Below, piece after piece: positions 9,403 to 9,541 of a stretch of DNA of 9,541 nt (positions within the stretch are counted from its first letter, which is position 1; each line of letters opens with the position of its first letter). This DNA is from a virus (lineage: Duplodnaviria; Heunggongvirae; Uroviricota; Caudoviricetes), in the IMG/VR virus record IMGVR_UViG_2548876863_000015. The stretch is one strand, 5' to 3'. The notes under the pieces are model-generated. The model made no database searches, was not told the origin of the DNA, and worked only from the letters and a program-made list of their open reading frames with translations. The translations under genes and the position numbers were made by a program.

Positions 9403-9460
9403 TTGTTCGTGGTTGTTCGATATTGTTCGTGAAACGGTGTAGTTAATGGTGTAGTTAATT
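9403..9460. repeat. Right arm module: three TTGTTCG heptamers at exact 10-bp spacing plus tandem 12-mer GGTGTAGTTAAT x2
   Basis: TTGTTCG at 9403-9409, 9413-9419, 9423-9429; GGTGTAGTTAAT at 9437-9448 and 9449-9460. Same module and same orientation as 95-162. Confidence 0.55.
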
Positions 9461-9530
9461 TCGCTGTTTTTGACGGAGTTGTTATTTGTAACATAGTGAA
9501 AAATAAAGACTAATCAATGAAATGTTATAA

Positions 9531-9541
9531 ATGATAGTTAT
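9531..9541. repeat. Terminal direct repeat ATGATAGTTAT, copy 2; candidate att core
   Basis: Identical to bases 1-11. Confidence 0.5.

Follow-up and report, generated by a model that had tools for sequence, protein, structure and literature searches.

Phased heptamers and tandem 12-mers at both ends of an Escherichia coli phage satellite: proposed AlpA and integrase sites in a P4/KplE1-type attachment site

Gene content of the element

The DNA analysed here (the window, meaning the whole stretch of 9541 bp) was found to be one complete integrated PICI-like phage satellite of E. coli, with attL and attR as its ends. It is matched at 98.8–100% identity by islands of strains such as E. coli O157:H7 and O103:H2, and its Int family gave more than 1000 hits among E. 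coli islands. The features and genes on which the analysis is built are given below, with their coordinates in the window and their strand; RDF stands for directionality factor.

1..11, no strand: attL copy of the core (crossover identity block), ATGATAGTTAT, recognized as an 11-bp direct repeat; it includes the yljB stop codon TGA
22..38, + strand: two core-proximal GTGTTCG copies 10 bp apart; proposed AlpA (RDF) sites, placed like the TorI sites I1/I2 of KplE1 and invariant in six related attL sequences
95..131, + strand: P'-arm array with four positions, one per 10 bp (TTGTTCG, TTGTTCG, CAGTTCG and TTGTACG); proposed AlpA (RDF) sites, placed like the TorI I3–I5 block, with a motif that tracks the AlpA type
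138..161, + strand: P'-arm tandem 12-mers GGTGTAGTCAAT GGTGTAGTTAAT, 23 bp before the int ATG; proposed Int arm-type sites, judged by the P4 layout and by their change with the Int N-domain
185..1408, + strand: int, tyrosine integrase (PF00589, 1.6e-17; PF13356 Arm-DNA-bind_3, 2.1e-16, residues 8–95)
2235..2269, + strand: hairpin and U-tract directly before alpA, located by folding and motif search; it includes the GTTCG pair at 2242–2256 and a probable Shine-Dalgarno sequence, GAGGA, in its 3' arm
2270..2494, + strand: alpA, AlpA-family winged-helix protein (PF05930, 3.4e-16); proposed directionality factor and activator
9393..9429, + strand: P-arm array, a degenerate GTGTTGA followed by three TTGTTCG copies at 10-bp spacing; proposed AlpA (RDF) sites, invariant in five related attR sequences
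9436..9459, + strand: P-arm tandem 12-mers, GGTGTAGTTAAT twice, 71 bp from the core; proposed Int arm-type sites, judged by repeat search and natural swaps
9531..9541, no strand: attR copy of the core (crossover identity block), ATGATAGTTAT, the second copy of the 11-bp direct repeat

The window also encodes a DUF4222 protein, a D5/P4-type primase (4115–5863) and a small terminase (terS), and a further gene is capsid-like, as 'phage major capsid protein' is annotated at the matching position of a near-identical island. Among the ORFs scanned in the window, alpA was the only Xis-like gene and the only one for an HTH protein; its product matched PDB 8c3t, a member of the AlpA family, with E = 1.3e-7. 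With int, alpA, pri-rep and packaging-interference genes, unidirectional transcription, a length of ~10 kb and a dedicated att site, the element has the make-up of a Gram-negative PICI, for which this gene set and one-way transcription are the described pattern (PMC6092414). The gene order int-alpA-primase-packaging genes, all rightward, and a dedicated attachment site unused by phages are shared with the Gram-negative PICIs (EcCICFT073) and the cf-PICIs, and it is to the cf-PICIs that the relatives of the window at other sites belong.

Other repeats were observed in the body of the element. Iteron-like direct and inverted repeats, CCCTCTACCC / GGGTAGAGG, lie just downstream of the primase gene (5870–6063) and are probably the replication origin, as described for PICIs. 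Direct and inverted copies of AAAGTTACAC are located inside and around the small-terminase gene (7033–7312), where they may serve as the TerS recognition (pac) site. A 740-bp non-coding, repeat-rich region (8660–9400) contains an 88-nt direct repeat (8695–8782 and 9232–9319; 95% identical) and 27-nt inverted repeats (8668–8694 and 8791–8817). This region gave no Rfam match, and an Rfam scan of the whole window matched no family. All four exact matches of the window to the IHF consensus (WATCAANNNNTTR) fall at 8824–9096 (8824, 8878, 9030 and 9084, minus strand), a number that none of 200 shuffles reached. The region may have a packaging (cos/pac) or a regulatory function. In L006, a cf-PICI, GCGGGTTAY direct repeats with inverted ACCCGC copies were seen downstream of the large terminase gene (27760–27935); these are unrelated to the att repeats.

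Integration site and core

In the genomes with near-identical islands, the insertion point lies between cspD/yljB and clpS. The junctions read CGATAG/ATGATAGTTAT/TTATCAG on the left and TTATAA/ATGATAGTTAT/CTATCAT on the right in L001, i.e. the 11-bp repeat that bounds the window is present at both. The attB reconstructed by joining the flanks, GATAGATGATAGTTATCTATCATG, was uninterrupted in 5058 of the 5426 complete E. coli genomes searched (228-bp query, at least 80% covered). The same short core at both junctions, together with an intact attB in element-free genomes, is the arrangement of a heterobivalent integrase attP. The initial annotation had read the ends as the two att halves of a recombination site, which these results support, and had called for attB to be identified in an island-free genome.

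A non-tRNA target had been suspected as well, and it can be regarded as confirmed because the empty site is intact in that many E. coli genomes. The core contains the yljB stop codon, and the nearest tRNA is ~3 kb away from the insertion, with tRNA-Ser as the only hit of ARAGORN. A tRNA or tmRNA target, as used by P4-like islands, was thus considered and rejected, the target being the yljB stop codon in the cspD–clpS intergenic region. P4 itself integrates into a tRNA gene, unlike the island in the window. An inverted repeat, ATGATAG-TTAT-CTATCAT, was also seen in attB (L001 3930–4004). As the core holds the stop codon of the 24-codon yljB, integration regenerates the end of that small ORF. 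Around the core, attB and attP have 19 of 21 positions in common, and TGATA-N6-TATCA, which occurs in both, is a plausible inverted pair of core-type sites.

Repeats at the two ends

Exact copies of TTGTTCG were found in the window only at 95, 105, 9403, 9413 and 9423, all on the + strand. The three copies at the right end are spaced by exactly 10 bp, as had been noticed from the outset, and a degenerate fourth position, GTGTTGA, is located in the same array at 9393. For the left end four such copies had been reported; two of these are exact (95 and 105), but the other two, CAGTTCG at 115 and TTGTACG at 125, are one-mismatch copies that keep the phase. The additional left pair proved to be GTGTTCG at 22 and 32, again on the + strand. 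Tandem 12-mers follow the distal arrays, as described, at a distance of 6 bp, with exact copies of GGTGTAGTYAAT at 138, 150, 9436 and 9448. Each arm therefore carries a module of ~70 bp, consisting of four 10-bp positions, a 6-bp gap and 2 × 12 bp. Because the modules share one orientation, as direct rather than inverted repeats, the statement in the initial annotation that the right end mirrors the left needs correcting.

Neither repeat class was reproduced by shuffling. GTTCG-N5-GTTCG occurred six times in the window compared with zero in all 200 dinucleotide shuffles, and GGTGTAGTYAAT with up to two mismatches gave six matches compared with 1.19 expected, a count that 0 of 200 shuffles attained. 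Among islands at the yljB site, the variable columns were 2 of 77 within motifs compared with 29 of 107 outside them for attL (six sequences; Fisher p = 5e-6), and 0 of 63 compared with 31 of 119 for attR (five sequences; p = 5e-7), these p-values being indicative only because the sequences are related to one another. The end repeats are real, conserved parts of the attachment site.

The two classes differ in character. The 12-mers are repeated arm-type candidates, unlike the core, on both sides of it (138–161 and 9436–9459), and the adjacent int encodes both a catalytic and an N-terminal arm-DNA-binding domain, as is the case for a heterobivalent integrase. The heptamers are direct repeats at one helical turn (exactly 10 bp) that adjoin the 12-mers across the 6-bp gap; direct repeats with a spacing of one turn are what the literature describes as typical for the sites of directionality factors (PMC7498355). 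Replication iterons or a packaging site were also considered for the heptamers and rejected, since the heptamers flank the core on both sides and separate iteron-like repeats follow the primase gene (5870–6060). No exact match to the IHF consensus WATCAANNNNTTR was present in either att arm. A scan for sigma-70 promoters in 1–400 and 2100–2300 predicted none.

Natural swaps among E. coli islands

Three groups of E. coli islands differ from the window in Int, AlpA or both. In the list below, identities are relative to the window proteins unless stated, and Int N denotes Int residues 1–100.

L006 and L015 (rcnR site): AlpA 97% and 92%; Int N 59%; heptamers of the TTGTTCG type, kept; 12-mers TGTGTGGTCAGT, checked on both arms in L006
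L005, L011 and L024 (roxA site) and L025 (abgR site): AlpA 62–66%; Int 75–77%; Int N 75–79%; heptamers TTGTTCC/TTGTTTC/TTGTGTC; 12-mers unchanged
L026/L027 (tqsA site): AlpA 100% relative to L005; Int N 78% relative to L005; heptamers those of L005 on both arms; 12-mers GGTGTAGTCAYT, i.e. GGTGTAGTCACT/GGTGTAGTCATT, on both arms, ~14 kb apart

In the initial annotation the phased heptamers had been taken for the arm-type sites of Int, bound by its N-terminal domain on one face of the helix, which would make the 12-mers sites for an RDF, a host factor or the like. The heptamers are indeed conserved and present on both arms, as arm-type sites must be, and Int does have an arm-binding domain. However, TTGTTCG was kept with a divergent Int N-domain (59%) and lost with a closer Int (76%) accompanied by a different AlpA, and that the more distant Int keeps the heptamers when the closer one does not argues against Int binding to them. 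It was the 12-mers, not the heptamers, that changed on both arms together with Int residues 1–100 (L006 and L026/L027), with the heptamers constant. TTGTTCG was found with the window-type AlpA, and TTGTTYC/TTGTGTC with the L005-type AlpA, whatever the Int type. The annotated arm repeats of P4 are likewise tandem 12-mers, and the mapped RDF sites of KplE1 are GTTCG-type repeats at 10-bp spacing. In the sequences compared, the heptamer type follows AlpA and the 12-mer type the Int N-domain. The swaps, the P4 arm repeats and the TorI sites all point away from Int on the heptamers, which we regard as quite improbable, and the earlier assignment of proteins to repeats should probably be reversed.

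Given the physical linkage between heptamers, 12-mers and int, some of this covariation could reflect recombination breakpoints rather than co-adaptation; for the 12-mers only, such an account is countered by the distant right-arm 12-mers, which change in concert. The heptamer type is not driven by the host, because all of the islands compared reside in E. coli. A search of genome contigs with an Int alignment returned six loci, represented by their left ends only, and these supported the left-arm layout. In L026, a cassette made up of the 12-mers and the first ~100 int codons has apparently been exchanged, with the heptamers and alpA kept.

The same 70-bp module was seen on both arms of cf-PICIs at other sites (L006 13192–13265 and 28222–28295; L026 ~2380 with L027 3396–3465). 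The modules on the two arms of L006 are identical at 69 of 70 positions, which suggests occasional gene conversion between the arms. It could be argued from this near-identity that the right-arm array is a functionless by-product of duplication or conversion of the left module with function confined to the left array, as in KplE1 and P4, where attR and the P arm, respectively, have no such array. Several observations speak against this. In the window, the 3-bp spacers have wholly diverged between the two arrays with the heptamers kept; the right-arm array is invariant in five diverged attR sequences with variable flanks; and it recurs in three distinct classes of integrase and site. We give a functionless right array only a very slim chance, and the arrays appear to be under selection in both arms, judging from the diverged spacers and retained motifs of the window.

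AlpA and the alpA leader

Outside the att arms, the window contains a single GTTCG-N5-GTTCG pair (2242–2256), which lies in and around the loop of the hairpin directly before alpA (dG -19 kcal/mol, z = -5.35), a structure followed by U7. L006 and L015 retain the pair, and in relatives from Raoultella and Buttiauxella, which conserve the hairpin but have other stem sequences, it appears in inverted form. The L005-type islands have GACACAA repeats (reverse complement TTGTGTC) in its place, and in islands L013–L018 the alpA 5' region is different and has no GTTCG pair. The hairpin may function as a terminator or as an RBS-occlusion switch under AlpA control. In EcCICFT073, AlpA activates its own promoter, is needed for induction and on its own triggers int-dependent excision, and it left Pint activity unchanged (PMC6092414).

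The heptamers might also be read by something other than AlpA: Int could recognize the whole 70-bp module, or the heptamers could bind a host nucleoid protein or another protein of the island. Array and 12-mers always form one module with a fixed 6-bp gap, the L006 modules look as if copied as a unit, and arms lacking an exact IHF consensus leave some bending factor unaccounted for. Nevertheless, heptamer types sort by AlpA type rather than by Int or host, the matching pair is located upstream of alpA, whose product autoregulates in a related PICI, and AlpA is the sole HTH protein among the scanned ORFs. We consider such a composite or third-party reading unlikely and retain AlpA as the candidate protein for the heptamers.

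A perfect palindrome, GTGATATCAC, was observed twice upstream of alpA (2175–2184 and 2196–2205, 21 bp apart). Its first copy overlaps the stop codon of a 257-aa ORF, and GTGATATCAC is also present in L006 and in part in L009. The pair looks like an operator for a dimeric regulator, and perhaps it is here that induction of alpA by the helper phage takes effect.

A model for the attachment site

Taken together, the sequence comparisons make it probable that the 12-mers are the arm-type sites of Int and the TGTTCG-type heptamers the sites of AlpA, acting as directionality factor, within an attP of the P4/KplE1 type. What we observed is the repeats with their phasing and conservation, the site of integration, and that each repeat class covaries with one protein; the assignment, like the DNA bending and the regulatory consequences proposed below, is our reading of these observations.

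Head-to-tail joining of the ends would give an attP of ~290 bp. The catalytic domain of Int would cut at the short core (TGATA-N6-TATCA around ATGATAGTTAT), and its N-terminal arm-binding domain would occupy the two tandem GGTGTAGTYAAT 12-mers of each arm, Int thus bridging 12-mers and core. AlpA, a small winged-helix relative of P4 Vis and KplE1 TorI, would bind the heptamers, i.e. the four positions abutting the 12-mers on each arm and the two by the core. We infer that it polymerizes cooperatively along the phased heptamers; the array would then introduce a bend in the DNA and assist Int, at the neighbouring 12-mers, in building the excisive complex, so that helper-phage induction would lead to AlpA production and then to excision. 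As the left array and its 12-mers lie within 90 bp before the int start codon, an additional influence of AlpA and Int on int transcription is probable, as in KplE1 and P4. Counting against the model are the heptamer arrays on both arms, where KplE1 and lambda have RDF sites on one, the unchanged Pint activity with AlpA in EcCICFT073, the lack of a predicted sigma-70-like int promoter in 1–400 and the missing GTTCG pair before alpA in L013–L018.

A further-reaching proposal, which we offer tentatively and hold to be rather doubtful, is that AlpA, the master activator of enterobacterial PICIs, is also their excision directionality factor, working through ten heptamer positions (both arms plus the core-proximal pair) in an intasome unlike those of lambda, P4 and KplE1, where the RDF loads one arm only, and that the site pair in the alpA hairpin couples excision to AlpA autoregulation.

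The result is a testable map of the recombination site of E. coli phage satellites that form a widespread family, to which cf-PICIs and O157:H7 islands belong. It proposes one repeat class per protein and suggests AlpA as a direct link from helper-phage sensing to excision. The swapped Int N-domain/12-mer cassettes and AlpA/heptamer pairs are a possible guide to the engineering of specificity, and to better automated delimitation of islands. The general picture of site-specific recombination is unchanged, and what is described here is a modest variation on a known module.

Comparison with known systems

In the literature consulted on Gram-negative PICIs (EcCICFT073) and cf-PICIs, we found no description of att-arm architecture or of AlpA binding sites, and the comparison is made with P4, KplE1, an integrative element and lambda.

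In P4, the annotated 'attP arm sequence repeat' consists of directly oriented tandem 12-mers that flank the core on either side, as in the window. Their distances from the core are 53 and 112 bp in P4 and 71 and 126 bp in the window, the farther pair lying 15 and 23 bp, respectively, before int; in both elements int is transcribed away from the core and has the P' pair immediately in front of it. P4 also resembles the window in its short motifs, which form an array with 10-bp phasing immediately ahead of the P' 12-mers and a pair beside the core, and in its RDF of the AlpA family (Vis, 46% identical to the window AlpA), and the Arm-DNA-bind_3 domain is common to the window Int, P4 Int and IntS. 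Both P4 and CP4-57 have 10-bp arrays of TCCG-type motifs at the position equivalent to that of the window's heptamers, and footprints of P4 Vis in attP are mentioned at second hand in the literature. However, P4 Int is just 22% identical to that of the window, the 12-mers and short motifs of P4 have sequences of their own (GGGGGCA and TCCG types), and an additional inverted arm repeat covers the int ATG of P4, whose P arm has no phased array.

The excisionase of KplE1, TorI, binds five cooperative sites in attL, which were mutated as GTTCG/GATCG/GTCCG (PMC2951348; PMC3509656). These sites form a core-proximal block and a distal block abutting the intS -35 box, with the arm-type P' sites next (PMC2951348), and attL also contains the int promoter, which both proteins repress (PMC2951348; PMC3509656). 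In the attL sequence of KplE1 from K-12, we found CAGTTCG, TGGTTCG and CAGATCG exactly 10 bp apart, followed by tandem arm sites of the GGGTAAAA type; attR contains tandem GGGTAAAATA repeats and no GTTCG array. Thus the window is like KplE1/CPS-53 (HK620, Sf6) in its two site blocks, one near the core and one distal, in the 10-bp spacing of the distal block and in the tandem arm-type sites next to it, but KplE1 differs in having TorI sites on attL alone, tRNA argW as its target and GGGTAAAA as its arm motif. TorI is 31% identical to the window AlpA and falls below the Pfam AlpA threshold, so the analogy with KplE1 rests on a distant relative.

RdfS of ICEMlSymR7A, a winged-helix RDF, binds attL upstream of the arm-type site and int as well as its own promoter, and a binding mode with one turn of DNA between protomers has been proposed (PMC11963761). 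The window sites are sharply defined heptamers, whereas RdfS has no consensus motif and carries an extra oligomerization helix. In lambda, int reads towards att, unlike in the window, and the sites of the RDF (Xis) are restricted to the P arm. Lambda has strong IHF sites, whereas the window arms contain no exact IHF consensus. The lambda attP is like that of the window in having a heterobivalent integrase, arm-type sites on both arms and adjacent direct repeats for Xis beside an arm site (PMC2951348).

Compared with P4 and KplE1, the window has its heptamer array on both arms; relative to the 12-mers, the array is farther from the core on the P arm and nearer to it on the P' arm. The proposed RDF sites are thus not confined to one arm, as they are in KplE1 and lambda; arrays were found on both arms in the window, L005, L006 and L026/L027. 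This presence of the heptamer-plus-12-mer module on both arms is the one unusual feature of the element relative to the known P4/KplE1-type module, the design of which it otherwise follows in an ordinary way.
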